Of a stretch of 64,000 nucleotides of DNA, positions 9,986-47,757 are shown piece after piece (position 1 is the first letter of the stretch; every line of letters starts with the position of its first letter). Made by a program: the position numbers and the translations under genes. The notes beneath the pieces are model-generated. The model made no database searches, had not been told where the DNA came from, and saw only the letters and a program-made list of their open reading frames with translations. The stretch is from Dehalococcoidia bacterium (GTDB taxonomy: Bacteria > Chloroflexota > Dehalococcoidia > SM23-28-2 > RBG-16-64-32): NCBI GenBank assembly GCA_040882565.1, contig JBBEAZ010000024.1:301137-365136 (forward strand), in the 5' to 3' direction.

Positions 9986-10201
9986 CGCTAGGTGCAATAA
10001 AGTTGACACGATCATTGTCAGTGATATTGATATGCGGAATCGTCCCAATGGGAGGCCTTAGCCGCAGGGCTTCCGGCCCTGCCTCAAATCACAAATACGC
10101 GGGACCACTCCCGGGCCATCCACTCCCAGAACGTTGATTGAGTATAATTTCGCCTGCAGGCTGCAACCGCGAGTCGGAACTAGAGGAAGGAGCGATGTGA
10201 G

Positions 10202-10486
10202 ATGTACGCAGTCGTTGGGCAAGTAAAAGTCGACGCTAGCCGCGAGGACGAGGCGCGGAAGGCGCTGGGCGAGATCGTCGTACCACAAGCGAAGTCTTTA
10301 TCTGGTTTCGCCGGCGGCACCTGGCTTCGCGCCGCGCAAGACGACCGTGGGATATCCGTCCTGCTCTTCGAATCAGAGGAAGACGCTCGTGCCGCCGTCG
10401 AACGCATGCGATCACAGGGCCCTCCGCCCGGCACGCCAGCAACGTTTGTCTCTGCTGACCTCTTCGAGGTCGTCGCACAGGCGTAG
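10202..10486 (+). CDS. small ABM-like (antibiotic biosynthesis monooxygenase / Dabb fold) protein
   Basis: 94 aa, GGAAGGAG RBS, alpha+beta barrel-like pattern; weak family assignment. Confidence 0.45.
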   Translation: MYAVVGQVKVDASREDEARKALGEIVVPQAKSLSGFAGGTWLRAAQDDRGISVLLFESEEDARAAVERMRSQGPPPGTPATFVSADLFEVVAQA

Positions 10487-31605: not shown

Positions 31606-31785
31606 AACCGGGCGTTCACATTGTACGCGCTTGTCCGTAGGGCTTGCCCGTATGGGCGGCGGCCTTACAAGCGAAACCGCCGGGGTGCGCCCGACGGCAC
31701 ATTCTAGGTTATCAGACGCGCTCGCAGGCTGTCGATGTTCGTTGCTGGGCCGGGAACCGGCGGTTACACTGGCGACAAGTCGCTA

Positions 31786-33183: not shown

Positions 33184-33951
33184 GGCGAGCTGCCGGCGGA
33201 GGCGCGAGGGCTGACGGGCGAGGCGGTACAGCCACTCGAGGCCAGTGCGGCGCATCCAGCGCGGGGCGCGGCTGGTAGCGCCGGAGATGAACGAAAACGA
33301 GCCTCCCTCGGCAATAGCCACCCGGACTCCCAACTCCGCCAGGTTCTCGGCAATCCATAGCTCCTGCTGCGGGAACCCCATCGCGACAAGAAGGACGTCG
33401 GGAGCGGCGGCGTTGATCGCGCGGACAACGGCGAACTTTTCGGCGCGAGCGAAATAGCCGTCCCGGAAGCCGGCGATGCGCAGTGAAGGCAGACGCCTGC
33501 GGATCTTCTCCTCCGCTCCGGCGACTTCATCAGCCGTACCACCAAGTAGGTAAACGCTGCGTCCGGCACGGGCGAGCGCCTCGAGCATCGTCCAGGTGAA
33601 GTCGACCCCGGCCATCGCCTCCGGCAAAGGGTGACGGAGCGCGGAGGGCCGCAGCGCAAGCGATCCGAGTGAGAGTGGCAGCTGGACGGTCGCGCGCAAC
33701 TTTCCACCGGCCAGCGAGAGGTAGTGCGCCGCCCAGAGGACGCCGACGCCGTCCGGCAGGCAGAGCGCAGCGCCGTTCAGGACATCGCGGACGCGTGTGT
33801 CCCGGTGAGCACGCGGCAAGAACTCTGAGTACGGCTTGACGACGTACGCCGTCCCTTGTTGTCCTGCGAGGCGCGCGACCTCTGCCGCTGCTTCCAGACG
33901 GGTGAGCGCGTGGAAACGGACGCCGAGCACCTCGACGTCCCGGGCGGTCAC
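33130..33951 (-). CDS. WecB/TagA/CpsF-family glycosyltransferase (GT26)
   Basis: Full-length GT26 pattern (GGTADEV, AMGFPQQELW, LEWLYRL). Confidence 0.8.
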   Translation of the reverse strand: MTARDVEVLGVRFHALTRLEAAAEVARLAGQQGTAYVVKPYSEFLPRAHRDTRVRDVLNGAALCLPDGVGVLWAAHYLSLAGGKLRATVQLPLSLGSLALRPSALRHPLPEAMAGVDFTWTMLEALARAGRSVYLLGGTADEVAGAEEKIRRRLPSLRIAGFRDGYFARAEKFAVVRAINAAAPDVLLVAMGFPQQELWIAENLAELGVRVAIAEGGSFSFISGATSRAPRWMRRTGLEWLYRLARQPSRLRRQLALPVFVWLVFLARLRRPS

Positions 33952-35171
33952 CGCCGGCCTCGGCGCCGCTGCCGAGGGGCGGTCGCCGGCTCGCCGCCCA
34001 GCACCCGGTCGAGACCACGGAACGCGATCTCGGCGATGTACTTCCCGCGGATGAGGGCGCGGCCGTTCTCACTGAGGACCCGCCAGCGCACGCCATCCGT
34101 GAGCAGCATGACGACTGCGTTCGCGATCTCGCGGTCGGAGCGGGCGACGATGAGATGGTCGCCCGGCACCACATCGAGCCCGCGCGCAGCTTGAAAGCTG
34201 GCGACAACAGGGACGCCACGCGCCAGGGCGTTCAGCACTTTGAGACGTGTGCCTCCGCCGGTCTTCGTCGCCTCAACGAACACTCGAGCACGAGTGTAGA
34301 GGGTCTCGGCGTCGTCCACAGGGCCGACAAAGTCGACGGCCTGACTGGTCGTCACGAGCTTGACCAGCGACGACGGCGCATCCCGCCCGGCGACGGCGAG
34401 TCGCGCGTCCGGAATCCTTTTCGTGATGTCGGGCAGCACGCGGGTGATGAATCGCTCGAGCCCGTCGACGTTCGGCTGCCAGCTCAGCGTGCCGAAATAC
34501 AGGATCAGAGGCTCCGACGTGGCGAAGGAGAGCGCCGGCTGTCCGAGGAGCGCCGGGTCGGGGACGTTGGGTAGGATGCTGAAGCGCTTGCTGTCGCTGG
34601 CCAGGGCCGCGAGCGACCTTCTGTCGTCTTCCGAGACGGCGAAGATGGTGTCGAACCGGTTGACGAGCGATGCCTCGTAGCGGCGCACGCGACCCGCCTC
34701 TCGCCGGAGGAGGAAGCCCCTGAGGCCGCTGCCGCGCTCGGCGGCCTCACGTTGCCAGATGCGGTACTCAGCGTTGTGCTCGTGGAGTACCTTGAGGCCG
34801 GAGAACCAACCGGGAAGGTACTGCGCGACGAGCCAGCCGTCGACAAAGACGGCGTCCGGGAGGCTGGACTTGAGCTGTTCCTCGACGAGGCGCCGCATCG
34901 CTGACGATTCGTTGCGTTCAACGCTGAGGGGGACGCGGCTGAGGTAGCTGCGCGCGAGGTTCAAGGGATTGCGGCGTCGGTCCAGGACAACTGTCTGCAC
35001 ACCTGCTTCGTTGGCCCACGCTTGCTGCTCCGGGGTCAGGGGCAGGCGCGTCAGAGCGATCGCGTTGATCTCGTGGCGGGCGCGGAGGTGCTGGAAGACG
35101 CTCCATGTCTTTAGGGCGGCGCCGCTCTCCGGCGGGTAGGGGAAGTGTGAGGTGAGAAAGAGGATGCGCAT
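33948..35171 (-). CDS. glycosyltransferase family 4 (GT-B)
   Basis: 407 aa; C-terminal GT4 sugar-donor binding motifs (E..K.GGGTRLKVLNALARGVPVV). Confidence 0.8.
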   Translation of the reverse strand: MRILFLTSHFPYPPESGAALKTWSVFQHLRARHEINAIALTRLPLTPEQQAWANEAGVQTVVLDRRRNPLNLARSYLSRVPLSVERNESSAMRRLVEEQLKSSLPDAVFVDGWLVAQYLPGWFSGLKVLHEHNAEYRIWQREAAERGSGLRGFLLRREAGRVRRYEASLVNRFDTIFAVSEDDRRSLAALASDSKRFSILPNVPDPALLGQPALSFATSEPLILYFGTLSWQPNVDGLERFITRVLPDITKRIPDARLAVAGRDAPSSLVKLVTTSQAVDFVGPVDDAETLYTRARVFVEATKTGGGTRLKVLNALARGVPVVASFQAARGLDVVPGDHLIVARSDREIANAVVMLLTDGVRWRVLSENGRALIRGKYIAEIAFRGLDRVLGGEPATAPRQRRRGRR

Positions 35172-35180
35172 GCAGGTGGG

Positions 35181-35912
35181 CTAGCGCGCACCCTTCTTCG
35201 TCATCACGAGAATGACGGTGCGAAGCAGGATCATCAGGTCGACGGTCAGAGGGTGGCGGCGCACGTAGCGCAGGTCGTAGCGGACCTTTTCGTAGTGCGT
35301 GAGGTCGGAGCGGCCGTTGACCTGCGCGAGGCCAGTCATGCCGGGCTTGACCTGGTGCCTCTGCCGGAACTGCGCCGGCCACGCTGCAACGATGTCCGGG
35401 ATGTCCGGACGCGGGCCGACGAGGGTCATGTCGCCCTTGACGACGTTCACGAGTTGCGGCAGTTCGTCGACGGTCGTCTTGCGCAGGGTCCAACCGATCG
35501 CAGTGGCGTGCTTCGGGCGGCCGCGCGGGCTAAGCAGGCGGTTCATCAGGTCGCCGGTCGGGAGCCGCTCGGCAAGATCGCTGCTGGCGCGGTTGTGGTG
35601 CATCGTGCGGAACTTGAGGAAACGAAACGCGCGGCTGTTGAGACCGATCCGGTCCTGCTTGATGAGCACGGGTCCCGGCGATTCGAGCTTGATCAGGGCG
35701 GCAGCGAGCGCAAACACCGGCCAGAGTATGCCGATCATCATCCCGCCCACGGTGATGTCGATCAGGCGCTTGACCGGCGAAGTTGGCCCGGTCTCGACGC
35801 GGTCGGGGATTTCTGGATACGACTCCGTAGCCTCCGGGACGGGCTCAGCCGACTGGCCGTTCGACCCGCTGCGCGAAGCCGGCGACACCAGTTCGTCGGC
35901 CGGGTCGCGCAC
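35181..35912 (-). CDS. initiating sugar phosphotransferase (small bacterial sugar transferase, WbaP/PglC type)
   Basis: Bacterial sugar transferase C-domain ([20 protein letters not shown]); single re-entrant helix N-terminus. Confidence 0.85.
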
Positions 35913-36868
35913 TAGCGTCGCGCTCCGGCGGCGATCAACTCGGCCACCTGCGGCGTGCGCATGTGCTCTACGAGCGCCTCTCGCCAGGGACGCAGCGTGA
36001 TACCGAGGACGGCTGCGCGGTTGTTTGCGAGCGTCGAGTCGACCGGCTTGCGGAAGGGTAGGTTGAAGTCAGCCTGGACAGCGCCTTCGGTTGGCACATC
36101 GATGCCGGCGAGCCGAAGGACTTCCCGGGCCCACTCAAGCCTCGAACAACCGTCGCCCCCACCGGCCAGGTGGTAGACGCCGTACTCGCCGGTCTCGATA
36201 AGCTGTGCGATTGCCGCGGCAAGGTCGTGTGTCCACGTTGGCGTAGCGATCTCGTCTGTGACCCCGCGGACGCGGCCGTCAGCAAACGCGCGCTCGACGA
36301 TCTTCTCCGGGAAACTGACCCGTCCTGGGCCATACACCCATGAGGTTCGGACAATGTAGTGCTTCTCGGTCTCCCCCCGCACAGCGATTTCACCTGCAAG
36401 CTTCGACCGGCCATATTCGTTGACCGGGTTCGGAGTGTCCTCTTCTTCGTACGGGGCCTTCCTCGTGCCCTCGAAGACTTCGTTGCTGCTGATCTGCACC
36501 ATCGCAGCTCCAATTTGCGCGGCGGCCCGTGCCACATTCGCCGCTCCCTGCGAATTCACTTGAAGGGCGCGCCCGGGGTCACGCTCGCAGCCAGTCGTGT
36601 CGGTCCAAGCCGCGCAGTTGATGACGATCTCCGGTTCTTCGCCCGTTACAGCCTCGGCGACAGCGTCTTCGTCCGCGATGTCTAACGGTTTAGCAACATT
36701 GTGTCTGTATCGACGCTCGTGGTGGGCGTAGAGGGAAAGGTAATTGTTCTTTCCTCCCTTACGCCACGCCGCGGCGCGGCCATCGGTCCCCAGTTCAAGC
36801 TGGAGTGCACGCCCCAATTGCCCGTCTGCCCCGGTGATCAGGATGCGGTGGCGCCATTCCATTTTCAC
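35912..36868 (-). CDS. rfbD: dTDP-4-dehydrorhamnose reductase with about 30-aa low-GC insertion near the N-terminus
   Basis: RmlD pattern ([25 protein letters not shown]) interrupted by [35 protein letters not shown]. Confidence 0.8.
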
Positions 36869-37320
36869 TTAACTACGCCTTGTTCAAGCTCCTCCTGAGT
36901 GTACTCGACCTGCTCATCCTTGAGATCCGGATCGTAGGGCGGGTCAGGATAGTTGACGAGCCAACCTTCTTCCGGACCGATGTTTTCGAGGCCGGTGGCC
37001 ACGTTCTTCGGGATGAAGAGGCGTTTGGGCGCAGCTGCGTCGAGGATATGTTCTTCACGGACCCATGTCGTCCTGCCACCGGATGCAGTCGGCTGGTAGA
37101 GGATGATCCGCATGCGGCCCTTGAGGCAGACGTAGCGCGCGGACCGAACACGGTGCAGGTGATAGCCCTTGAAAGCGCCAGGCGTCGCGGCGGAGAGATA
37201 GACCTCGGTCAGGTGGCCGTCGGGGCTCTTAAACAGCTCGATCAAGAACCCGTTCTCGTTGCCGCCGTGGTCTTTGGTGGTGACGCGCTTCGCGGACTCT
37301 TCGCTGACTCGGTCGATCAT
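36865..37320 (-). CDS. rfbC: dTDP-4-dehydrorhamnose 3,5-epimerase-family cupin (short form); ORF track to 37536
   Basis: RmlC-like cupin motifs (KGYHLHR, NYPDPPYDPDLKDE); 151 aa. Confidence 0.7.
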   Translation of the reverse strand: MIDRVSEESAKRVTTKDHGGNENGFLIELFKSPDGHLTEVYLSAATPGAFKGYHLHRVRSARYVCLKGRMRIILYQPTASGGRTTWVREEHILDAAAPKRLFIPKNVATGLENIGPEEGWLVNYPDPPYDPDLKDEQVEYTQEELEQGVVK

Positions 37321-37324
37321 CGCC

Positions 37325-38365
37325 CTAGTCTGGGCCACGTGGCTTCGCTTCAGCAAGCCGTTTGCCGTACTGCTTCTCGTAGTACGCTTGGAAATCGGCG
37401 TCGCGCACCTTCTCCCACCACCAGCGGTTCTGTAGATACCACTCGACTGTCTTTTCGAGCGTTGCCTTGAAGTCGTGGCGAGGGTGCCAGCCCAGCGCCT
37501 GAATCTTCGAGGAGTCCAAGAAGTAGCCGCGGTCATGGCCTGCGCGGTCCTCGACGAAACGAATGAGGCTGCGCGGCTTCTCCAGCAGGTCGAGGATCAT
37601 TTCCGCCACCTCAAGGTTCGGGCGCTGGTTACCGGCGCCAATGTTGTAGGCCTCGCCCGGCACGCCTTCGTGGAGCAGCAGGTCGAGCGCCTCGCAGTGG
37701 TCTTCGACGAAAAGCCTGTCACGGGTCTGCTGGCCGTCGCCGTAGATCGGCAAGGGCAGCCCCTGCATAGCGTTGGTCGCGCAGAGTGGCACGAACTTCT
37801 CGACGTGCTGGCGGGGGCCAACGTTATTTGCCGGTCGCGCGACGACGACCGGCAGGTCGTAGGTCTCGACGTAGGCGCGACACTGCATCTCACCACCGGC
37901 CTTGCTCGCTGAGTAGGGGCTACGCGGCTTGAAGACGTCGGTCTCGACGGAAGGCAGGTCCGTCGGCAGGACCTCGCCGTAGACCTCATCGGTCGAGATG
38001 TGCAGGAAGCGCTGGAGGTGCATGTTCTGCCGTGCCGCCTCAAGAAGAGTGTAGGTACCGAAGACGTCGGTCTGGATAAACGAGCCGGGCTCCATCAGCG
38101 AGCGGTCAACGTGCGTCTCCGCGGCGAAGTGAGCGACATAGTCGGCATCCGGCATCAGCTTGCCGACGACCACCGGATCACAGATGTCACCCTGGACGAA
38201 GCGGTAGCGCGGGTCATCAGCGACGTCGCGGAGGTTGTCGGGGTTCCCGGCGTAGGTCAGCTTGTCGAGATTGATGACGCTAGCATCTAGATGCTCCTGG
38301 AGGAGACGGACGATGAAGTTACTACCGATGAAGCCGCAACCGCCTGTGACCAGGTAAGTGGTCAC
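37325..38365 (-). CDS. rfbB: dTDP-glucose 4,6-dehydratase
   Basis: TGGCGFIGSN, YSASKAG, full RmlB pattern. Confidence 0.9.
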   Translation of the reverse strand: MTTYLVTGGCGFIGSNFIVRLLQEHLDASVINLDKLTYAGNPDNLRDVADDPRYRFVQGDICDPVVVGKLMPDADYVAHFAAETHVDRSLMEPGSFIQTDVFGTYTLLEAARQNMHLQRFLHISTDEVYGEVLPTDLPSVETDVFKPRSPYSASKAGGEMQCRAYVETYDLPVVVARPANNVGPRQHVEKFVPLCATNAMQGLPLPIYGDGQQTRDRLFVEDHCEALDLLLHEGVPGEAYNIGAGNQRPNLEVAEMILDLLEKPRSLIRFVEDRAGHDRGYFLDSSKIQALGWHPRHDFKATLEKTVEWYLQNRWWWEKVRDADFQAYYEKQYGKRLAEAKPRGPD

Positions 38366-39501
38366 TCGGGGATCTCGATCCTGGAGTGGTCGCCGAGCGT
38401 CAGCGCGTAACCCGCGCCGCCGCCGTGCCCACCCGCCAACTCGACATTTCGGCCGATCATGCTCTTAACGATGGGCCAGTGCAGGTCTTCGATCCGGCTG
38501 TCTTCCATGACGATACTGTCCTCGATGCGACAGCCCTTGATCCGGCAGCGCGCATCGATCGAAGTGTTTGGACCGACGTAGGAGTCGATCACTTCAGCGC
38601 CCGCGCCGATGATCAGCGGGCCGCGGAGGACGCTGTTCTCGATCCGCGCGCCGGCTTCGATGACGACCGGCTCGTACACCCGAGTCTTTTCGTCGATCTC
38701 GCCGTCGCGGCGGTCGCTGAGCGTGCCGAGGACCATACGGTTGGCGTTCAGGATGTCGTCCATCTTGCCGGTGTCTATCCAGTAACGGTCCATCACCTCG
38801 GCGCGGACCCGGGCGCCGCGGTCGATCAGACCCTGGATTGCGTCCGTGATCTCGAGTTCGCCGCGCCATGACGGCTTCAGCGTCGCGATGACGTCATGTA
38901 CGGCTGGGTCGAATATGTAGATGCCGATGACGGCAAGGTTTCCCATCGGCTCCTTCGGCTTTTCGACGATGCGTGTGACAACGTCGTCCGTTAGTTGGGC
39001 GATGCCGAAAGCTTCCGGGTTGGAGACGGGATGGAGGAGGATCTGCGAGCCTTGGCCCGCGGCGCAGTGCTTCTCGACGTACGGCTGGATGCCGCCGAGC
39101 ACGAAGTTGTCGCCCAGGTAGAGGACAAATGGTGAGTCGCCCAAGAACCCATGCGCGGTGCGTACAGCGTGGGCGATGCCGCCGGGCTTGTCCTGCTGAA
39201 CGATCGTGATGTTTGCGCCGAACTGGGAGCCATCGCCGACCGCTGCCATCACCTGCTCGGCGGTGTCGCCAACGACGACGCCGATGTCGGTGATGCCGCA
39301 CTCGACGAGTTGCTCGATCGCGTAGAAGAGCACCGGCTTGTTGGCGATCGGCACGAGTTGCTTGGCATTGGTGTAGGTGAAGGGGCGAAGGCGGCTGCCG
39401 ACGCCGCCGCTGAGGACGAGGCCCTTGAGCGCGCCATCGGCGGCGCCACTCGCGGACGGGGCTGCGGGATCCCGGCTGGTCGTCGTGGTCGTGGTTGCCA
39501 T
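38362..39501 (-). CDS. rfbA: glucose-1-phosphate thymidylyltransferase (long form with C-terminal left-handed beta-helix)
   Basis: LKGLVLSGGVGSRLRPFTYTNAKQL nucleotidyltransferase motif plus hexapeptide-repeat C-domain; about 25-aa N-terminal extension if ATG 39501 is used. Confidence 0.85.
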   Translation of the reverse strand: MATTTTTTSRDPAAPSASGAADGALKGLVLSGGVGSRLRPFTYTNAKQLVPIANKPVLFYAIEQLVECGITDIGVVVGDTAEQVMAAVGDGSQFGANITIVQQDKPGGIAHAVRTAHGFLGDSPFVLYLGDNFVLGGIQPYVEKHCAAGQGSQILLHPVSNPEAFGIAQLTDDVVTRIVEKPKEPMGNLAVIGIYIFDPAVHDVIATLKPSWRGELEITDAIQGLIDRGARVRAEVMDRYWIDTGKMDDILNANRMVLGTLSDRRDGEIDEKTRVYEPVVIEAGARIENSVLRGPLIIGAGAEVIDSYVGPNTSIDARCRIKGCRIEDSIVMEDSRIEDLHWPIVKSMIGRNVELAGGHGGGAGYALTLGDHSRIEIPE

Positions 39502-39503
39502 GA

Positions 39504-40418
39504 TTAGACTAACGAGCGCCCTTTCGGCTGGTTATGCGTGTGCCAGAAAAGCGCGCGAATGGCGGGAATAGCACGGCCGATCCGCGTGGGATTACGCACG
39601 AAGTAGGCTGGGGCGTAGAACAACGCGTGCATCAGAAAGGCCGTGACGGCCTGCATACGGGTCCCACGCTTGCGCGCGAAAAGCAGTGCGTTGCGGCGGT
39701 AGAGGTAGTCGAAGCGGGCGTCTGGCTTTTGCGAGCGCGAGGCCTTGTGCCAGATGCGGGCCAGCGGCACGTAGTAGCAGTGGAGACCGTAAGCGCGGGC
39801 GCGAATGCACCAGTCAGTCTCTTCCCAGTAGGCGAAGTACTGCTCGTCCAGGAGGCCGACCTTCTCGATGGCCGAACGCGGGATCAGCATGCAGACGCCG
39901 TCCGCATAATCCCGGCGCTTGACGCGATCGTACTGGCCGGTGTCCTCTTCGCCGCGTCCGACCTGCGTCGCGACGGCGCGCCAGATGCTAACCTCGCCGC
40001 CGGTCGAGTAGATGACGCGCGGCCGGTCATAGAAGTTCGTGCGCGGGCAGGCCGCGGCGAGATCGGGCAGTTCGCGCGCGGCGTCGATCATCATCTGCAA
40101 AAACGTCGGGGCGACGACGGTGTCGTTGTTCAGGAGGAGAACGTAATCGCCATCAGCCTCCAGGGCGCGACGGATGCCTGCATTGGCGCCGCCGGCGAAG
40201 CCGCGGTTCTTCGACAAGCGCAGGACCTCGAGGAAGCTACCGAATTCTGCTTCGAGCTTGCCAGCCTCGTCATTGCGTGAGCCGTTGTCGACGACGATTG
40301 CACGGAAGGCGCCGTAGTCCACGGCCTGCAGGCTCTGAAGGCACTCACGAGTGTCGGCTAGGCCGTTCCAGTTGAGGATGACGATTGTGACGCTTGGTGG
40401 GGTGGTCATAGACTGCAT
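39504..40418 (-). CDS. glycosyltransferase family 2 (WbbL-like rhamnosyltransferase type)
   Basis: GT-A DxD (VDNGS, LLLNNDT), about 300 aa like dTDP-Rha rhamnosyltransferases. Confidence 0.8.
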   Translation of the reverse strand: MQSMTTPPSVTIVILNWNGLADTRECLQSLQAVDYGAFRAIVVDNGSRNDEAGKLEAEFGSFLEVLRLSKNRGFAGGANAGIRRALEADGDYVLLLNNDTVVAPTFLQMMIDAARELPDLAAACPRTNFYDRPRVIYSTGGEVSIWRAVATQVGRGEEDTGQYDRVKRRDYADGVCMLIPRSAIEKVGLLDEQYFAYWEETDWCIRARAYGLHCYYVPLARIWHKASRSQKPDARFDYLYRRNALLFARKRGTRMQAVTAFLMHALFYAPAYFVRNPTRIGRAIPAIRALFWHTHNQPKGRSLV

Positions 40419-40520
40419 ATGCGCTCGCCGGGCGGAAATTCGGCCGGGTCTGGGCGGGTGTTTGAGCGCTCGTGCTAAGTGTCGTGAACATCGCGCCTTT
40501 GGTCAAGCGAGCATATAATT

Positions 40521-43289
40521 TTGCTTGTGGACGCCCCCCGCTACGAATCCCAGATTGACCTTACCAACGAAAACAACTCGCAGACGCTCGTCATCCTACT
40601 CACTGGCGAAAACAAGCGTGTGCTGGAGACAGGCCCCGCTACTGGCTACGTCACCCGCGAACTCCAGGCTCGAAGTTGCAAGGTCACCGGTCTAGAGATA
40701 GACGAGCAAGCTGCTGCCATCGCTGAGCCATTCTGCGAGCGGATGATAGTCGGCGACCTCGAGAAGCTGGATTTCGCGGAGACGTTCAAGGGCGAGCTGT
40801 TTGACGTCGCCATCTTTGGCGACGTGCTGGAGCACCTGGCTGACCCTTGGCGCGTGCTGCGGGAGATACGTCCGTTCCTGGCGCCGGGCGGGTATATCGT
40901 AGCGTCAGTGCCCAACGTGGCTCACGCCAGCCTGCGTCTCTCAGTTCTGCAGGGCGACTTCAAGTACACAGAACTGGGCCTGCTGGACCGCACGCACCTG
41001 CGCTTCTTCACCCGTGAATCACTGGGCGAACTGTTTCGTGACACCGGCTACTCGATCATAGAGTGGCGCCGAGTCGTCCTCGACCCCTTCGCCACGGAGC
41101 AAGGGCTGCGGGAGTCAGACTACCCGCCCTACCTCGCCCAAGCGATGCGCAATGACGAAGAAGCGCTCACCTACCAGTACGTGGTAACCGCCGTGGTCAG
41201 CGATACGCCTATCGCGTTCAACGGACACGACGAGGCAGCGGTGCCTCGGACGGCACCGCTAAGCTCCGCGATGGCAGCGATCCGCGCCGAGGAGAACCGA
41301 ATCCTCGCGCTGGAACGACGCATGGCCACCATCACCGAGGGCTGGCACTCGCTGACGCCGCGCCTCGAGGAGGCGGAGGCGAAGCTGCTCAAAATGACGC
41401 AGCACGCCGGCAACCTCGGTAATGACCTGAGCCGAATGCGCAACAGCATCGGCTGGCGGCTGCTCCAGATCGCGCGCACGCCGATTCGAGTGTTGGCGCC
41501 GTCGGGAAGCCCGCAACGCCTGCCGCTGATCGCCGTGCGACGCGCGATCGGCCTCGCGGCGCGGCGCGGCCCCATGGCGCTGGTCAAGAAGGTAGCGAAC
41601 GTGCGGCAGTGGCCGGCGGTGATGCGCAACCTGCGTCGGCCCCAGGTCCCGCACATGGACCTGAACGCCGCGTACCAGATCTGGCTCGAACGATACAGCA
41701 TCACGCCCGAGAGGGCGGACCGCCTGCGCATCGAGGCGCTGACGCTGACTTACCGGCCGCGCATCAGCATCGTCACGCCCGTGTACAACCCGGAGGTGAG
41801 CTGGCTGCGCGACGCCATCGACTCGGTCGCCGGGCAGGTTTACGACAACTGGGAACTGTGTCTGGCGGACGACGGTTCGACAAAGCCAGGTATCCGCGAA
41901 CTCCTCGAGGACTACGGCTCGCGCGACAACCGGATCAAGGTGTCGTTCGCGGAGCAGAACGCAGGCATTTCAGCGGCATCGAACAGGGCGCTGGCTATGG
42001 CGACCGGCGAGTACGTCGGCTTGCTCGATCACGACGACGTGCTGACGCCGGACGCGCTCTACGTGGTGGCCAAGCAGCTCAACGAGCGCCCAGAGATCGA
42101 CTATATATACAGCGACGAGGACAAGATGGAGCTGGACGGCGGCCGCCTGGACCCGTTCTTCAAGCCGGACTGGTCACCGGACACGCTCTACTGCCTGAAC
42201 TACGCCACGCACTTCAGCGTCTATCGCAAATCGGTGCTGGACGGGGTCGGCGGGTTCCGGCTGGGGTTCGAAGGAAGCCAGGACTGGGACTTGACGCTGC
42301 GGGTGACTGAGCTGACGGACCGCGTCGCCCACATTGCGCGACCGCTGTACTCTTGGCGTAAGGTGCCGGGCTCGGCGGCGGCTGCCGACGACGCGAAGGA
42401 GTATGCGCACGTGGCCGCGCGGAAGGCGATTGGCGAGGCGCTGGAGCGGCGTGGCACTCCCGGCCAGGTGCTGGACGGCCCATACAAGGGTTACTACAGG
42501 GTGAAGTACGACATCATCGGCGAGCCGAAGGTGGCGATCGTGATCCCGACTCGCGACGGGCTCGACATGCTGCGCAAGTGCATCGACAGCATCCGCACCA
42601 AGTCTAGCTACACAAACTACGAGATCATCATCATCAACAACCAGAGCAGCGACCCAGCGACGCTGAAATACTTCGACCAGTTCGGCGGCCGCGTGATCGA
42701 TTACCCGCACCCGTTCAACTACTCGGCACAGATGAACCTCGGCGTGCGCGAGGCCGGCGCCGAGTACGTGCTCCTCCTCAACAACGACACGATCGTCATG
42801 AACGACGACTGGATCGAGGCGATGCTGGAGTACGGGCAGCGGGCTGACGTTGGCGCCGTCGGCGCGCGCCTGCTGTTCCCGGACGGCCGCGTGCAGCACG
42901 AGGGGGTCTACGTGGGTTGCGGCGGTGGGCTGGCGGGCCACATCGACCACAAAGGCTACTATGCCCTCGGTGAGTGCGTGCTCAACGTCTCGGCCGTGAC
43001 GGCAGCCTGCATGCTCGTGAAGGCGAGCGTTTACCAAGAGGTCGGCGGGCTCGACGAGGAACTGAATGTCGCCTACAACGACGTTGACTTCTGCCTCAGG
43101 CTGCGCGCTGCCGGATACGAGGTCATCTACACACCCCACGCCCGGCTAGTGCACCGCGAGGGCGGTACGCGCGGCCACCGCCACCCGGACGGCAACGAGA
43201 GCCTCTTCCGCAGCCGCTGGCCCAACTACCGCGACCCCTACTACAACCCTAACTTCGACGTCGACCATCCGTTTGCGCTGAAACTTTAG
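40521..43289 (+). CDS. trifunctional fusion: class I SAM methyltransferase, coiled-coil, two GT2 glycosyltransferase domains (WsaE-like chain elongation/terminator enzyme)
   Basis: MT motif I VLETGPATGY and ADPWRVL/PGGY post-motifs; about 60-aa heptad region; GT2 domain 1 ISIVTPVYN..DDGS..DHDD; GT2 domain 2 VAIVIPTRD..NNQS..NNDT; TTG start abuts a TATAAT box so the true start is uncertain. Confidence 0.8.
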   Translation: MLVDAPRYESQIDLTNENNSQTLVILLTGENKRVLETGPATGYVTRELQARSCKVTGLEIDEQAAAIAEPFCERMIVGDLEKLDFAETFKGELFDVAIFGDVLEHLADPWRVLREIRPFLAPGGYIVASVPNVAHASLRLSVLQGDFKYTELGLLDRTHLRFFTRESLGELFRDTGYSIIEWRRVVLDPFATEQGLRESDYPPYLAQAMRNDEEALTYQYVVTAVVSDTPIAFNGHDEAAVPRTAPLSSAMAAIRAEENRILALERRMATITEGWHSLTPRLEEAEAKLLKMTQHAGNLGNDLSRMRNSIGWRLLQIARTPIRVLAPSGSPQRLPLIAVRRAIGLAARRGPMALVKKVANVRQWPAVMRNLRRPQVPHMDLNAAYQIWLERYSITPERADRLRIEALTLTYRPRISIVTPVYNPEVSWLRDAIDSVAGQVYDNWELCLADDGSTKPGIRELLEDYGSRDNRIKVSFAEQNAGISAASNRALAMATGEYVGLLDHDDVLTPDALYVVAKQLNERPEIDYIYSDEDKMELDGGRLDPFFKPDWSPDTLYCLNYATHFSVYRKSVLDGVGGFRLGFEGSQDWDLTLRVTELTDRVAHIARPLYSWRKVPGSAAAADDAKEYAHVAARKAIGEALERRGTPGQVLDGPYKGYYRVKYDIIGEPKVAIVIPTRDGLDMLRKCIDSIRTKSSYTNYEIIIINNQSSDPATLKYFDQFGGRVIDYPHPFNYSAQMNLGVREAGAEYVLLLNNDTIVMNDDWIEAMLEYGQRADVGAVGARLLFPDGRVQHEGVYVGCGGGLAGHIDHKGYYALGECVLNVSAVTAACMLVKASVYQEVGGLDEELNVAYNDVDFCLRLRAAGYEVIYTPHARLVHREGGTRGHRHPDGNESLFRSRWPNYRDPYYNPNFDVDHPFALKL

Positions 43290-46158
43290 CGCGCTGCCGC
43301 TGGTAGGTCGCGTACAACGCTCCGCCAAGCACCAGCACCACGACCGTTGCGATGCTAATGCGCTGGCCCCAGACGTACTCGTCCGGACGGAACTGCATCA
43401 TCACCTCGTGCTCGCCGGCGGGCACGGCGATAACCTGAAGATCGTTGTCCCCGCGCAACACCTTCGCACCCTTGCCGTCGATCTTCACCTGCCAGCCGTC
43501 GTCGTAGCGCTCGCTGAGCAAAAGCCAGCCCCCAGCGCTAAAGTTCGTGCTTACCGCGAGGCTATCGCCGTCGTTGTCGGTGACCTCGGCCTCGAACGTG
43601 CCTTCTGCGGTCGTCGCCTCGGCGGTCGGAACGTCGTCTTCGGCGAACACAACCGACTGCGCCGGGTCGAAGCCGGCATCGGTGATGCGGATGAGAGCAT
43701 CGTCACGCGTCGGGACGACTTCCGACGCGCCAACGCCCCACGCGAGCGGCCTGGCGGCGGTGACCTCGTACACCATGCCGTCTGGCCCGTCGTAGACCTC
43801 CTTGGCCCAGTCACCGGGTGATCTCAGGGCGCGGTGCGTGAGCGTCCCATCGACAGGCGAGCCATCCACAATAAGCCGATTGACAGGGTTGGGGCTTTGC
43901 GGAGCGCCCCAGATGATCAGCGGCCTTTCCTTGGTCGCCGTCGGAGCCTCTATCACGATAGTTGGCGCCCCCGCGTATCCGAAGGGCAATTCAACACGCT
44001 GCCACGATCCGTCGGGCATTGAGCCGGCGTCGAAACTCGCCGAGGAGATCTCATGGCCCTGCGGCGCCTCAAGTACACGGATCGTTGCCTCGGTCCCGGG
44101 CGGTAGCCATCCTCCGTTGCTGACGAAGAACTCGACCGCGTCGGTTTCCGGCGGAACCCCGAATTGGAAGGTCTGGGTAACGTCACCGTACGCCGTGTAG
44201 GGTGTCTCCGCTGGGAGGAATTCGCTTACTGATGTCCATAACCCGGACGGGGTCGTGACGATGTACTTGACGCCGAGCAGCGACAGCAGGTTGCGGTTGA
44301 CCTCGCCGCGGTTTGGCGCGACACGGACGTAACCGAACGCGATGGCGCGGCCGGTGTCGTCGTCAGACATCATCGGGTCGAGGTAGTCGAGATAGGCTTC
44401 GTTGCGGTAGTGGTCGTACCCGATGATGGTGTTCAGCCCATAAACGTTGGGCGTGTTGCCGGGCATCACGTGGTCGCGGCCGTCTGACGCGATGGGCGCG
44501 ATGCGGAAGAAGCCTCCTTGTTCCTGAAGAAACTCGATCAGGGGAGTAGTCGGATAGAGGTCATCTTTATCGACTGTGGCGTTGTAGCCGCTACCAAAAG
44601 CGAAGAGGTCGAGGAAGGTCAGCGCCAGGAGAAAGGCCGCGGCCTGTCGCGCGAGCAGCGGCCTCAGGCAGGCCACCACCACCGTCGCCGCACCGAGCAC
44701 GATGAACGCGAGTTGCCGGTGGAAGGGCGTGCCGATCATCGTCCACGGAGCGGTGACGACACCATGCCCCTCGGTGATCCAGCGGAACGACTGGCCCTGG
44801 CCTCGGTCTATGTAAAGGACCGCGACAGCCATTAGCGCCACGGTTGCGACACCGGCGGTGACGGCCGCAAGTTGCCGGCGCTCACGCGCTGACGTTCTCG
44901 AATCGAGCAGCGCCGCAAGGCCTGCTGGGGCGACAAGAGCGACGGCTAGGTTGATCACAAAGAGCCACCGCCCCGCGGTGACCTGCTTGATGCCTGGAAG
45001 GTGTGCCAGCTCCTTGAGCGGCGGGATGCCGTAGACCTGCCCCGCTGCGAAGACGATTAGCGCTAGGCTGAACCAGCCCAGCCAGTTGCGGCGCAGGTGC
45101 CAGAGGCCAGCGATCGTGAGCGGGGCAATCGTTATCCCGATGTAGCCGAGCGCTTCGGGAGGATTGCCGAACGGCCCGAACCAGAAGTTCTCCGTGCCCC
45201 AGTAATCGGGAAAAAGGTTCGTCCAGGCGGTCTCCAGCGGCAAGTCGCCGAGGCCGACAGCGCGTCCGGTCTGGTAGCTACTGCCCGCAGCGCTCGATAC
45301 CGACGGAATGAGCGAATACGCCGCGAGCAGCATCCCGACGAGCCCAGCCGCCACGTAGCCCGCCGTGTCAGTGGCGGCTTCGCGGAAGCGCCGCGCATAG
45401 ACCGAAGGAGCCAGCCGCGTGGCACCGTAGAGCACCAGCACAGCACCGGTAACGATCCACGCCGGCACGTAGCCCAGGTATATCTCGATCGCGATGCAGG
45501 CGGCAGGTATCAAGAGATACGCGGGATTCCGCACTTCACGGAAACGTTCGAAGCCAAAAAGCATGAGCGGCACAACGCCAAGGCTGGCGGGCAGGTGAGA
45601 ATGCCCAAGCCAGACAATGAAGTGCCCGTTGAATGAGTAAATGACCGCACCGAGGACGCAGGCAAGCCAGGGGTATTTGAACTGCCAGAGTAGCAAGTAC
45701 ATCGCGAGGCCGGCCACCAGGATGATGATCAAGTGGTAGGCCGTATTGGCGACCTCGAAGGGCAATGCTTCGTAGACGTAGGCCGGCGGGTAAAATTGCA
45801 TCCCCAGCGCGTCGACGAGGAACGTATTGCGGTCGCTCGTGATGTAGTCGTCCTGCCACCAGGAGTCGCCGGTCCCGTTGTAGAGCGCGTAACGCCTGGG
45901 GTACAAGATGTCCGCGTCGTCGGTCTGGTAGGGGTTCTCAGGTGAGAAACCGTCGGGCGCGGACGCCTTCCAGGGATAGCTGTTGTACATCAAGTCGGCA
46001 GGCGAGATGATGCGCTGCTGGAGTGTCACCTGCCAGAAGAAGGCCGCGATGAACAGCATCAACACGCAAGCAGCGGCGACATGTGGGCACCGGAGAGCGG
46101 TCAGGCGGTCGAGGGGGCTACGGCGGGCCGGGGTGGTGGTTTCGCCCGCGGGCGTCAA
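43249..46158 (-). CDS. YfhO-family GT-C fold membrane glycosyltransferase-like protein
   Basis: 969 aa; about 12 N-terminal TM helices, large extracytoplasmic beta-rich domain, final C-terminal TM; architecture of YfhO (PF09586). Confidence 0.7.
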   Translation of the reverse strand: MTPAGETTTPARRSPLDRLTALRCPHVAAACVLMLFIAAFFWQVTLQQRIISPADLMYNSYPWKASAPDGFSPENPYQTDDADILYPRRYALYNGTGDSWWQDDYITSDRNTFLVDALGMQFYPPAYVYEALPFEVANTAYHLIIILVAGLAMYLLLWQFKYPWLACVLGAVIYSFNGHFIVWLGHSHLPASLGVVPLMLFGFERFREVRNPAYLLIPAACIAIEIYLGYVPAWIVTGAVLVLYGATRLAPSVYARRFREAATDTAGYVAAGLVGMLLAAYSLIPSVSSAAGSSYQTGRAVGLGDLPLETAWTNLFPDYWGTENFWFGPFGNPPEALGYIGITIAPLTIAGLWHLRRNWLGWFSLALIVFAAGQVYGIPPLKELAHLPGIKQVTAGRWLFVINLAVALVAPAGLAALLDSRTSARERRQLAAVTAGVATVALMAVAVLYIDRGQGQSFRWITEGHGVVTAPWTMIGTPFHRQLAFIVLGAATVVVACLRPLLARQAAAFLLALTFLDLFAFGSGYNATVDKDDLYPTTPLIEFLQEQGGFFRIAPIASDGRDHVMPGNTPNVYGLNTIIGYDHYRNEAYLDYLDPMMSDDDTGRAIAFGYVRVAPNRGEVNRNLLSLLGVKYIVTTPSGLWTSVSEFLPAETPYTAYGDVTQTFQFGVPPETDAVEFFVSNGGWLPPGTEATIRVLEAPQGHEISSASFDAGSMPDGSWQRVELPFGYAGAPTIVIEAPTATKERPLIIWGAPQSPNPVNRLIVDGSPVDGTLTHRALRSPGDWAKEVYDGPDGMVYEVTAARPLAWGVGASEVVPTRDDALIRITDAGFDPAQSVVFAEDDVPTAEATTAEGTFEAEVTDNDGDSLAVSTNFSAGGWLLLSERYDDGWQVKIDGKGAKVLRGDNDLQVIAVPAGEHEVMMQFRPDEYVWGQRISIATVVVLVLGGALYATYQRQRAKVSAQTDGRRRS

Positions 46159-46985
46159 ACCGCCTCCATGTAGTGGGGCACCGTCGCCATGTACTCGGCG
46201 ACGACCCGCTTGGCCGGGCCGTCAGCGGCGAGGCGGCCATGGTCCAGCCAAATGGCGCGGTCGCAGAAGCTAGTGATCGTCTCGGCGCTGTGAGAGACGA
46301 CCACAATCGTTATGCCGCGCTGTTTGAACTCGTGCATACGCTCATGGCACTTCTCCTGGAAGAACGCGTCCCCCACCGACAGCACCTCGTCCACGAGGAG
46401 GACTTCCGGATTGCTGTGGACGGCGACGGCGAAACCTAGACGAACGTACATGCCGGAGGAGTAGCGCTTGACCGGCATGTCGATAAATTCCTGCAGCTCG
46501 GCGAACTCGACGATCGCCGGGAACTGCTCGTTGATCTCACGCTCCGACATGCCGAGAATCGAGCCGTTAAGGTGCACGTTCTCACGGCCGGTAAGGTCGG
46601 GGTGGAAGCCAGCGCCCAGCTCGATAAGCGGCGAGACGCGGCCGCCGACGAACACCTGCCCCTCGCTCGGCGCGGTGACCCCGGCAATGAGCTTGAGCGC
46701 AGTACTCTTGCCGCTGCCGTTGCGGCCGATGATGCCCAACGTTTCGCCCCGCGCCACGGTGAAACTGACGTCCGTGAGCGCGCGAAACTCATCGCCCCAG
46801 GGCTTACGCGAGATGATGGCGGTGGCGAACTCGCGCAGGGTACGGCCGTCCTTCAGGAAGAAGCGCTTGGTGACGTCACGGAATTCGATCTCGGGCTCAG
46901 GATCGAGCGGATTAGATGCTGTCTGCAAATCCCTTTTCCATCTTCTTGAACAGGTAATAGCCGCCAAGGAACGTGACAACCGCAA
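46155..46985 (-). CDS. wzt: ABC transporter ATP-binding protein, Wzt/TagH type without C-terminal carbohydrate-binding module; start possibly TTG near 46928
   Basis: Walker A GRNGSGKST, signature YSSGM, Walker B LLVDEVL; only 276 aa. Confidence 0.85.
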   Translation of the reverse strand: MRLSRSLAAITCSRRWKRDLQTASNPLDPEPEIEFRDVTKRFFLKDGRTLREFATAIISRKPWGDEFRALTDVSFTVARGETLGIIGRNGSGKSTALKLIAGVTAPSEGQVFVGGRVSPLIELGAGFHPDLTGRENVHLNGSILGMSEREINEQFPAIVEFAELQEFIDMPVKRYSSGMYVRLGFAVAVHSNPEVLLVDEVLSVGDAFFQEKCHERMHEFKQRGITIVVVSHSAETITSFCDRAIWLDHGRLAADGPAKRVVAEYMATVPHYMEAV

Positions 46986-47757
46986 TCACAACGCCCAGCA
47001 AAACTTTCTCCACGTCCGGGTCCTCCCCGTAAAGCATCGTCCGGCGATAGGCGTCAATGAACACGGCATTGGGGTTGAGGTCGAAGAGGATCTCGTATTT
47101 GTCCGGAACGATATCCACCGGGTAGATCACCGGCGTCAGATAGAACCAGAGCGTGAGCGCCACACCAACGAGGAACCGGACGTCATGGAAGTAGAGGTTG
47201 AGCGCGGCCAGCGGGTATGTGAGCCCGAGCAGGAAGATGAGGTGGATGCCGAAGAGGAGGGGCAGCCAGTACGACGTGGCCTCGGGCAACCGGCCATAGT
47301 AGGCCATCAGCGCGCCGAGAATCACCAGCCCGAAGAACAGGTCGACTAGTTTCGTGAAGACGGCCGCCGTGGGCAAGACCTCGCGCGGGAAGTAGACCTT
47401 CGTGACGAGCGTCGAGGCATTCACGACGGAGTCGGTCCCGGACGACAGCGCGTTCGAGAAGAAGAGCCAGGGAATGAGGCCGACGAAGAGGAAGAGCGGA
47501 TACGGCAGGTCACCGGCCGGTTGCACCCGCAAGATCGTGGAGAATACGAACGAGAGGATGATCATCTGGCTGAGCGGGTTCACGAACGCCCAGGCATAGC
47601 CGAGGACCGATTGTTTGTACTGGCCGCGCAGGTGGCGGATCGTCATGTGCCAGAGCAGGTCGCGCCGGCGCCAGAAGCCGAGCAAGTTCGCGGCCATGTC
47701 GAACGGGCCGGTGGCAGTGGAAAGCGGTTGCCTGCGGAGGGATTGGGATCGAGCCAT
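46912..47757 (-). CDS. wzm: ABC-2 type polysaccharide export permease
   Basis: 281 aa, 6 TM helices, ABC-2 family pattern. Confidence 0.8.
   Translation of the reverse strand: MARSQSLRRQPLSTATGPFDMAANLLGFWRRRDLLWHMTIRHLRGQYKQSVLGYAWAFVNPLSQMIILSFVFSTILRVQPAGDLPYPLFLFVGLIPWLFFSNALSSGTDSVVNASTLVTKVYFPREVLPTAAVFTKLVDLFFGLVILGALMAYYGRLPEATSYWLPLLFGIHLIFLLGLTYPLAALNLYFHDVRFLVGVALTLWFYLTPVIYPVDIVPDKYEILFDLNPNAVFIDAYRRTMLYGEDPDVEKVLLGVVIAVVTFLGGYYLFKKMEKGFADSI

Follow-up and report, generated by a model that had tools for sequence, protein, structure and literature searches.

Can a single polypeptide chain polymerise a glycan, cap its growing end and carry the spacer that holds these two activities apart? 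The question is raised by an uninterrupted open reading frame on the plus strand (40521-43289; 922 codons counted from TTG) of the window, the 64,000-nucleotide stretch of DNA analysed here, which comes from a metagenome-assembled genome (MAG) of the Dehalococcoidia (Chloroflexota). An earlier note had read it as a methyltransferase terminator, a coiled-coil ruler and two GT2 polymerase domains in one protein. Here we show that the frame does encode one chain with an intact methyltransferase, a heptad helix, a basic segment and two intact GT2 domains. The protein is best read as both polymerase and terminator of a rhamnan that carries an O-methyl cap and leaves the cytoplasm through an ABC transporter, and by analogy with characterised proteins the gene probably encodes a trifunctional enzyme of the WsaE type in an ABC-transporter-dependent glycan pathway. 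The single-chain terminator-spacer-polymerase design would thereby reach uncultured Chloroflexota, beyond the S-layer glycans of Firmicutes and the O antigens of enterobacteria. To our knowledge, the envelope glycans of Chloroflexota are essentially undescribed.

Start codon and domain architecture

The coding sequence (40527-43289, plus strand; 920 amino acids plus stop) begins at the GTG at 40527-40529, which is residue 1 in the numbering used below (the numbering of the earlier note is higher by two). The annotated TTG at 40521 had rightly been doubted. The NCBI product (P0001, 920 amino acids) begins at the GTG, and the ATG starts of orthologues align with it. A TATAAT hexamer that we regard as the -10 promoter element lies at 40514-40519 (plus strand), 7 nt before the GTG and one base, rather than the previously noted two, before the TTG. 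The distance from TATAAT to start is 7-10 nt across this gene and its counterparts in six orthologous loci (L081-L086), with 8-10 nt separating it from the ATG in those six. The TTG, one nucleotide past the -10 element, would sit upstream of the transcription start and is misaligned with the orthologue starts; we reject it as almost certainly not the real start. TATAAT occurs twice in the 64-kb window against 1.9 occurrences expected, with no enrichment, both copies being intergenic and facing a gene; as this frequency is unremarkable, the promoter argument turns on position and conservation. No match to a -35 consensus was found and a sigma-70 scan of 40300-43500 gave no -35/-10 pair, so it is the conserved -10 element that carries the promoter call; the same interval yielded no intrinsic terminator. 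Neither the last 20 nt before the GTG nor the six orthologous loci contain a Shine-Dalgarno-like sequence which, with a TATAAT conserved so near the start codon, points to a leaderless mRNA. Transcription would then begin at the GTG, the probable 5' end of the message, or no more than a few bases from it. We know of few mapped transcription starts in Chloroflexota, for which this conserved TATAAT beside a start codon offers a clean candidate leaderless promoter.

Pfam and an AlphaFold2 model built with 78 homologues (mean pLDDT 88.9) together give the domain order as methyltransferase, tether, coiled coil, basic segment, helical adaptor, GT2a and GT2b, confirming the sequence of methyltransferase, coiled coil and two GT2 domains originally claimed. 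The model comprises a Rossmann-type methyltransferase (18-224), a disordered stretch (230-245), a single helix (247-305), further helices (308-405) and two GT-A folds (413-661 and 669 to about 900). Homologues of the 920-residue protein number more than 1,000 and are spread over many phyla; the 78 that were aligned share 36-71% identity, with invariant catalytic residues.

The class I SAM-dependent methyltransferase domain, a putative chain terminator, occupies residues 18-224 (40578-41198, plus strand), close to the span of about 20-210 first proposed. It is matched by the Pfam families Methyltransf_23 (residues 28-180, E = 4e-22), Methyltransf_11, Methyltransf_12 and Methyltransf_25, and it aligns, motifs included, with PDB 3cc8 (E = 5e-37; Foldseek TM 0.80), the closest solved methyltransferase, a free-standing protein of unknown function from Bacillus cereus (BCE_1332). 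The SAM-binding residues are intact and conserved in the 78 homologues (G36 and G40 in the VLETGPATG loop, E57 and D99), as are L101, E102 and L104 in FGDVLEHL. A flexible tether of 22 residues follows (225-246; 41199-41264, plus strand), with pLDDT below 50 at 230-245 and only 19-44% identity among close orthologues.

Beyond the coiled coil lies a basic amphipathic helical segment (residues 306-372; 41442-41642, plus strand) that contains 14 Lys/Arg and no Asp/Glu, has hydrophobic moments of 0.63 (helix 308-323) and 0.67 (helix 359-370), and carries a motif, S.G.RL..R.R...AP.G.RRR, conserved in the 78 homologues. It is 39-67% identical in orthologues, above the coil, and its sequence properties make it a candidate membrane-binding region. 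A helical adaptor (residues 373-412; 41643-41762, plus strand), modelled as helices 379-390 and 394-405 at pLDDT above 90 and bearing the nearly invariant Y383 and W386 (78 homologues), leads into the first glycosyltransferase domain.

The two GT2 domains, both of the GT-A type, span residues 413-661 (GT2a; 41763-42509, plus strand) and, with the C-terminal tail, 669-920 (GT2b; 42531-43286, plus strand). Pfam recognises Glycos_transf_2 stretches (E = 2e-47) at 416-574 (PF00535) and 669-878 (PF13641), and GT2a also matches PDB 2z86. Among the 78 homologues, H502-D503-D504 (LLDHDD), D530 and Q585 are invariant in GT2a, and N752-N753-D754 (LLLNNDT), H791 and D852 are conserved in GT2b. Two complete domains are present, as the earlier note had held, but not a DxD in each: the NND of GT2b keeps only the last Asp of that motif. 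GT2b matches the rhamnosyltransferase family TIGR01556 at 69 bits, under the curated cut-off.

The coiled coil as a candidate spacer

Between the methyltransferase and the polymerase modules, residues 247-305 (41265-41441, plus strand) form one continuous DSSP helix of 59 residues, about 87 Å long, with an unbroken heptad repeat, where a heptad-rich coil had been placed at about 240-300. A single register puts hydrophobic residues at 16 of the 17 a/d positions (AIEILMIWLLALMALLM), against 21% at the other positions, a score that no shuffled version of the segment matched in 20,000 trials, and the hydrophobicity power spectrum peaks at a period of 3.5. In the AlphaFold2 model, computed as a monomer, the coil has moderate confidence (pLDDT 63-76).

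Across 89 homologues, the lengths of the methyltransferase and GT2 domains are fixed (s.d. 1.4-9 amino acids), the coil-bearing segment ranges from 54 to 160 amino acids, and the segment that follows is most frequently 105-107 amino acids (range 50-198). Because a simple heptad scanner gave too much noise to size the coil of each homologue (r = 0.51), coils were compared through these segment lengths and two structure models, in which a cyanobacterial homologue from Leptolyngbya (P0084) has a single helix of 156 residues compared with 59 here. In close orthologues, the coil is only 10-34% identical, yet its length is held at 72-97 amino acids. A coiled-coil review ties such divergence of sequence with retention of length to spacers. 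Variation in coil length on fixed catalytic domains, as judged from sequences and models, fits a spacer or ruler without proving one. The two findings by which the earlier note could have been overturned, a broken coil and lost SAM-binding residues, are both contradicted by the model and the alignment. Of the ruler claim, the predicted continuous coil between terminator and polymerase stands; the ruler role itself is a matter of inference, the coil is short, and a disordered tether of 22 residues between methyltransferase and coil would blur a rigid ruler. The homologues form a compact natural series, from 59 to 156 helix residues, for asking whether rhamnan length follows coil length.

Gene cluster, proposed function and alternatives

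The gene lies in a glycan cluster whose other members are on the minus strand. On one side are a GT4 glycosyltransferase (33948-35171; Pfam Glyco_trans_1_4), a priming polyprenyl-phosphate sugar-1-phosphate transferase (35181-35912; Pfam Bac_transf, E = 8e-54, with NCBIfam matches below cut-offs), rmlD (35912-36868; TIGR01214, 237 bits versus a 224-bit cut-off), a small cupin in the rmlC position (36865-37320), rmlB (37325-38365; TIGR01181, 442 versus 365 bits), a long-form rmlA (38362-39501; TIGR01208, 416 versus 320 bits) and a divergently transcribed soluble GT2 of 304 amino acids (39504-40418; Pfam GT2, with a TIGR01556 match below cut-off), a candidate adaptor rhamnosyltransferase whose position is identical in L081-L086. 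The cupin has sub-threshold matches only, to PF14667, FdtA and PF00908. On the other side, a convergent gene for a YfhO-family GT-C membrane protein (43249-46158; Pfam YfhO, E = 8e-21), present in L081 and L083 and absent from L082, L084 and L085, overlaps the methyltransferase/GT2 gene by 41 nt at its 3' end. It is followed by genes for the Wzt ATPase (46155-46985) and the Wzm ABC-2 permease (46912-47757; Pfam ABC2_membrane) of an ABC transporter, the Wzm having a weak, sub-threshold NCBIfam match to galactan Wzm (62 bits versus a 380-bit cut-off). All six orthologous loci keep this synteny, the least similar at 53% identity. A MOP/Wzx-type flippase is also encoded near the cluster. The 304-residue GT2 and the YfhO protein were considered as a GtrB/GtrC-type side-chain glycosylation pair, and this was rejected because inspection of its sequence shows the GT2 to be soluble and WbbL-like, with no C-terminal membrane helices.

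In the window Wzt, Pfam detects ABC_tran and finds no Wzt_C, the C-terminal carbohydrate-binding module. The Wzt proteins of close orthologous loci are likewise ATPase domains only (251-264 amino acids), whereas in other loci with a methyltransferase fused to one or more GT2 modules they have 399-434 amino acids, and Wzt_C is confirmed in the 401-residue Wzt of an Enterococcus faecalis locus (L042). The setting first suggested, an ABC-transporter-dependent O-antigen system, holds as far as the Wzm/Wzt glycan cluster with rml genes is concerned and is less likely for the product. Dehalococcoidia are monoderm and not known to have LPS, so a cell-wall or S-layer glycan is more likely than an O antigen.

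We propose that the glycan would be started on a polyprenyl phosphate and then lengthened by the small enzymes GT4 and GT2. The polymerase-terminator would oligomerise through its coiled coil, with the basic segment keeping the adjoining GT2 modules at the membrane and the methyltransferase at the far end, beyond the roughly 9-nm coil and the flexible tether. Held so far from the membrane, the methyltransferase may reach only the non-reducing ends of chains that are long enough, and O-methylation of the hydroxyl required for the next addition would stop growth. The lipid-linked polymer would then be exported by Wzm/Wzt and probably transferred or modified outside the cytoplasm by a GT-C enzyme, which in loci that have it would be the YfhO-like protein.

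A real, if clearly lesser, possibility is that the methyltransferase modifies sugars at points throughout the chain, or caps the chain with no control over its length, that the coil serves only to oligomerise or scaffold, and that polymerisation and export compete to set the length, as happens in ABC-transporter systems with neither a cap nor a carbohydrate-binding module on Wzt. The ATPase-only Wzt of this locus and of all close orthologues, set beside the longer proteins of other fused loci, would suit such an arrangement, as would the disorder of the methyltransferase-coil tether; the order of terminator, coil and polymerase, in contrast, matches systems with a demonstrated or assigned ruler, it is the length of the coil and not its sequence that is kept within a clade and varied between clades, and the methyl group added by WsaE is reported to cap the chain end. 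We think it highly improbable that the GT2 modules are non-processive and build a short defined oligosaccharide, for instance a linker or a side branch, for later modification by the methyltransferase. Polymerisation is deduced from homology, and the cluster includes two further glycosyltransferases with the flippase nearby, all of which such a product could accommodate; the dual-GT2 cassette nevertheless resembles, in published domain order, the polymerases WsaE and ORF6 of Klebsiella pneumoniae O7, matches K4CP and PmHS2, also polymerases, in sequence or structure and is paired with Wzm/Wzt, an exporter of fully polymerised chains, and a coiled-coil spacer would have no evident purpose in making a fixed oligosaccharide.

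The identity of the sugar is open to challenge because the cluster epimerase is not a canonical RmlC: the cupin is divergent, below all family cut-offs (13 bits for PF00908), and its best matches are a Cap5F-type cupin and FdtA, as could be expected were the polymer made of a 6-deoxyhexose other than L-rhamnose (6-deoxy-L-talose, for example) or mixed. We consider this improbable, as RmlA, RmlB and RmlD score above equivalog cut-offs, the orthologous cupin in L085 matches PF00908, and the characterised enzymes of the same architecture are rhamnosyltransferases. Returning to the capped rhamnan, a more speculative extension, which we hold to be unlikely, is that this clade represents a capped-glycan pathway in which the transporter does not read the cap, since its Wzt has no carbohydrate-binding module. 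Nothing but the fused terminator and spacer would then fix chain length, or else the YfhO-type GT-C would recognise the cap once the chain has been exported. Recognition by the YfhO protein, if true, would define a new type of glycan ligase or oligosaccharyltransferase that places a methyl-capped rhamnan onto an envelope or S-layer acceptor in monoderm Chloroflexota.

Comparison with characterised polymerase-terminators

The single-chain combination of terminator, ruler and polymerase is not a new idea, as WsaE, WbbB and ORF6 of K. pneumoniae O7 are all published; the likeness to each is judged here by published domain descriptions. WsaE, from the S-layer glycan pathway of Geobacillus stearothermophilus NRS 2004/3a, likewise joins an N-terminal SAM methyltransferase to two glycosyltransferase domains; its 2-O-methyltransferase caps the chain and its two rhamnosyltransferase domains form α-1,2 and α-1,3 links. 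Its cluster also contains rml genes, wzm/wzt and a gene for a priming phosphoglycosyltransferase, and its host, like ours, belongs among the Gram-positive or monoderm bacteria. The candidate final transferase is YfhO-type here and the oligosaccharyltransferase WsaB there, and the published descriptions of WsaE consulted here mention no coiled coil, as opposed to the 59-residue coil seen here. No partner of the WsaF β-1,2-rhamnosyltransferase type was detected among the window genes scanned, so the repeat unit is probably a disaccharide. A full-length homologue from Firmicutes (P0086, 40% identical) ends in a fused WsaF domain. Database searches with the 920-residue protein and with the first 967 residues of P0086 listed no entry labelled WsaE, so the link to WsaE is drawn from its published domain description. 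The E. faecalis locus L042 encodes a homologue with 43% identity over query residues 348-910, and two glycosyltransferases of the epa locus of E. faecalis V583, which may be a different locus, are reported to be homologous to the C-terminal domain of WsaE.

ORF6 of K. pneumoniae O7 (JBC 2024) shares the N-terminal methyltransferase, the central coiled coil and the two C-terminal GT2 rhamnosyltransferase modules. It is longer (1,414 amino acids), inserts a kinase and an immunoglobulin-like module between methyltransferase and coil, and makes a methyl-phosphate cap; here the coil begins only 22 residues past the methyltransferase, which leaves no room for a kinase, and from the sequence a plain O-methyl cap is expected. 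WbbB (K. pneumoniae O12 and Raoultella terrigena) is also a single protein with a terminator, a coiled coil and two polymerising glycosyltransferase modules, its terminator being a β-Kdo glycosyltransferase instead of a methyltransferase. In the WbdD/WbdA pair (Escherichia coli O9a and K. pneumoniae O3), a methyltransferase-containing terminator is separated by a coiled coil from a membrane-proximal polymerase, and a review describes the WbdD coil as parallel, setting chain length by its own length and followed by a membrane-interacting region. That system, however, is split over two proteins: WbdD is a trimer with kinase and methyltransferase activities and a coil of about 200 Å versus about 87 Å here, and WbdA, whose donor is GDP-mannose, does not belong to the GT2 rhamnosyltransferases. 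Among solved structures, the nearest dual GT-A polymerase is the chondroitin polymerase K4CP (2z86; E = 4e-25 by sequence, 2e-21 by Foldseek), which differs in using UDP-sugars, in its 16% identity and in having neither terminator nor coil.

According to the 2024 K. pneumoniae study, all examples of terminated O-polysaccharides have a cap-reading carbohydrate-binding module on Wzt; such a module accompanies WbdD, WbbB and ORF6, unlike the Wzt of this cluster. A fused terminator paired with a module-less Wzt makes the locus a natural test of whether capping and cap-gated export are necessarily linked. Set against its prototypes, the protein is a clear further example of a known design and not a new kind of system, departing from them in two respects: the Wzt of its cluster lacks a carbohydrate-binding module, and its helix is attached to the methyltransferase through a disordered tether of 22 residues.

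Domain architecture and coiled coil

The open reading frame at 40521–43289 (+ strand) runs without interruption for 922 codons counted from its first possible start, a TTG, and encodes a protein identical to a public 920-aa 'glycosyltransferase' from a Dehalococcoidia MAG (assembly GCA_040876785.1), for which the start is annotated at GTG 40527. Residues are numbered here from that GTG (numbers in the earlier note are higher by two). Pfam assigns ORF residues 28–180 to a class I methyltransferase and recognises two GT2 stretches (416–574 and 669–878). An AlphaFold2 monomer model of the 920-aa protein (78 homologues in the alignment; mean pLDDT 88.9) comprises a Rossmann-type methyltransferase domain (residues 18–224), a disordered stretch (230–245), a single continuous helix (247–305; pLDDT 63–76), five or six shorter helices (308–405) and two GT-A domains (413–661 and 669 to about 900).

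Against the solved structure 3cc8 from Bacillus cereus, the methyltransferase domain aligns at E 5e-37, with correspondence at the glycine-rich loop (VLETGPATG versus VLDIGCSSG in 3cc8), at the FGDVLEHL motif and at the acidic residue that follows strand 2, and these motif residues are invariant or nearly so among the 78 homologues (36–71% identity). H502-D503-D504 of the first GT2 module (GT2a), H791 and D852 are likewise invariant across this set; the second module (GT2b) has N752-N753-D754 (LLLNNDT), and so only the last Asp of DxD. Judged from their sequences, the catalytic domains look functional.

In one register of the 247–305 helix, 16 of the 17 a/d positions are hydrophobic (AIEILMIWLLALMALLM), compared with 21% elsewhere in the helix. 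In the power spectrum, hydrophobicity is most strongly periodic at 3.5 residues, and shuffling the segment 20,000 times never gave so high an a/d score. From the heptad pattern and the helix of the monomer model, the predicted coiled coil is real, bearing out the claim in the earlier note that a heptad-rich coil follows the methyltransferase. That note held that its proposal would fail if a continuous coil or the SAM-binding residues were missing; the predicted helix is continuous, and the methyltransferase motifs are aligned, intact and conserved. As a helix rises by about 1.5 Å per residue, the 59 residues would extend for about 87 Å. Residues 306–372, after the coil, contain 14 Lys/Arg with no acidic residues, include two strongly amphipathic helices and are better conserved than the coil. 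Because a membrane-interacting region follows the coil in WbdD, we infer by analogy that this segment may keep the GT2 modules at the membrane.

Start codon and promoter

A perfect TATAAT (40514–40519, +) lies in the intergenic region facing the gene, 7 nt before GTG 40527. The window contains two copies of this hexamer, about the chance number, both intergenic and each facing a gene; in all six orthologous loci (protein identity 53–71%), a perfect TATAAT is found 8–10 nt before the aligned ATG start. No Shine-Dalgarno-like motif was found in any of the seven loci (the window and the six orthologous ones). Bacterial transcription usually starts about 7 nt past the −10 hexamer and, because the spacing to the start codon equals this distance, the sequence points to an mRNA that would be leaderless or nearly so. 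No −35 consensus was found near this TATAAT, nor an intrinsic terminator around the gene. TTG 40521 is 1 nt past the hexamer and so cannot be on a leaderless transcript. An in-frame stop at 40485, upstream of the ORF, and the near-invariance of Y6, D11, N16 and S18 among the 78 homologues leave no candidate start besides GTG 40527. The doubt previously raised about the annotated TTG was thus justified, with the GTG favoured by the conserved TATAAT spacing and the orthologue starts.

The second TATAAT (10143–10148) is about 50 nt upstream of ATG 10202, which follows a clear Shine-Dalgarno sequence (GGAAGGAG; region 10185–10204), so the organism seems to use leadered, Shine-Dalgarno-dependent mRNAs as well as leaderless ones. 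In orthologous locus L086 (7001–7015), the public gene call for P0020, the orthologue there, takes as its start an ATG overlapping the hexamer (TATAATG). The start in line with those of the other orthologues comes 12 nt later, so this call is probably four codons too long.

Relatives and gene cluster

Of the candidates that a word-indexed protein search scored, 1,108 reached E ≤ 1e-10, and a genome scan gave at least 597 confirmed loci. Among the matches listed, the GT2a–GT2b cassette is spread through Bacteria and reaches some Archaea, with roughly 10 to 1,290 residues ahead of it at the N terminus, and members of the Chloroflexota, Actinomycetota, Cyanobacteria, Firmicutes and Gammaproteobacteria have the full methyltransferase–coil–GT2–GT2 chain; one subgroup has a fused WsaF domain (for example, the Firmicutes homologue P0086). 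Three archaeal MAG contigs, assigned to Bathyarchaeia (L011), Nitrosopumilaceae (L014) and Methanosarcinales (L036), carry the cassette at 42–45% identity (best tblastn segment), with genes for Wzm, a long Wzt and a YfhO-like protein also present in L014. The Enterococcus faecalis En1-EF locus L042 (7134–13735) encodes, in order, a Wzt with Wzt_C (its C-terminal carbohydrate-binding module), a 1,085-aa methyltransferase/long linker/single GT2 protein and a separate 715-aa GT2–GT2 protein, and illustrates modules redistributed between chains.

Across 89 similarly organised homologues, the domains hardly vary in length (s.d. 1.4–9 residues) and the inter-domain linker spans 107–269 residues. The part that varies runs from the methyltransferase to a conserved S.G.RL motif (54–160 residues), with the basic/adaptor part after the motif mostly 105–107 residues long (range 50–198). 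At the same place, the model of the Leptolyngbya homologue P0084 has a single 156-residue helix of about 230 Å. In the syntenic clade, the coil is 10–34% identical, compared with 55–80% for the catalytic domains; its segment is 72–97 residues long and the a/d positions are mostly still hydrophobic.

A soluble 304-aa GT2 diverges from the gene across a common intergenic region, and the divergent side also encodes rmlA (long form), rmlB and rmlD, each above its NCBIfam equivalog cut-off, a 151-aa cupin in the rmlC position (36865–37320, −), a priming enzyme (Bac_transf) and a GT4. The cupin scores under every cut-off for RmlC (PF00908, 13 bits), FdtA and Cap5F-type cupins; its orthologue in L085 matches the RmlC family, and it may represent a compact, divergent 3,5-epimerase family kept in these Chloroflexota clusters. 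On the convergent side are a 969-aa YfhO-family GT-C, Wzt (46155–46985, −) and Wzm. This arrangement is kept in the orthologous loci L081–L085, the YfhO gene being present in only some of the orthologous loci; L086 keeps the rml side and ends ahead of any Wzm/Wzt gene. The gene shares its last 41 nt with the 3′ end of the YfhO-like gene on the opposite strand (43249–43289; 17 nt in L081 and L083) and, with no terminator-like hairpin found at the overlap in the window, transcription from the two sides would collide or the two transcripts would pair. A MOP/Wzx-type flippase (31735–33183, +) at the edge of this ABC-transporter-dependent cluster, also present in L082, suggests that there is another glycan pathway or that a priming module is shared. 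Directly after the orthologue gene lie a 1,048-aa methyltransferase–GT4 fusion in L086 (9955–13101) and a 262-aa free-standing methyltransferase in L084 (9221–10009), hinting at further methylation or a second terminator. The host is a member of the Chloroflexota and, as to our knowledge its group is monoderm and without LPS, the polymer is more likely to be something other than O antigen.

Comparison with known single-chain systems

Mann, Kimber and Whitfield reportedly catalogued terminator/coiled-coil systems of this kind in a 2019 census. WsaE of G. stearothermophilus has been described as trifunctional: two GT domains form the α-1,2 and α-1,3 links of the S-layer rhamnan, which an N-terminal methyltransferase caps. 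In ORF6 of K. pneumoniae O7, a methyltransferase, a kinase and an Ig-like module are followed by a coiled coil and a pair of GT2 rhamnosyltransferase modules; WbbB of O12 also has a coiled coil and two GTs, and its terminator is a Kdo transferase. The K. pneumoniae paper regards a coiled-coil protein with a terminator at its distal end as the mark of a widespread strategy. The earlier proposal of one chain with terminator, ruler and polymerase is therefore correct in form but not new, as all three proteins are published; its observation is confirmed and its interpretation partly supported. The coil may be an oligomerisation element only, a view that persists because WsaE methylation in vitro was independent of chain length. 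A coiled-coil review ties conserved length with divergent sequence to molecular spacers, a pattern that the sequences of the coil fit.

The protein also differs from these prototypes. Its coil, preceded by a disordered 22-residue tether, does not reach half the length of the WbdD coil. Unlike O7 ORF6, the chain lacks the space to accommodate a kinase, and the expected cap is therefore plain O-methyl. Although the cluster encodes a fused terminator, Wzt is a bare ATPase domain with no carbohydrate-binding module, both in the window and in every close orthologue (L081–L085), whereas the K. pneumoniae paper describes a Wzt cap-binding module in all terminated O-polysaccharide examples; in the compared loci from other phyla with a methyltransferase fused to GT2 module(s), Wzt is 399–434 aa long, with Wzt_C confirmed in E. 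faecalis L042. This module-less Wzt and the conserved, putatively leaderless promoter are the only features of possible specialist interest.
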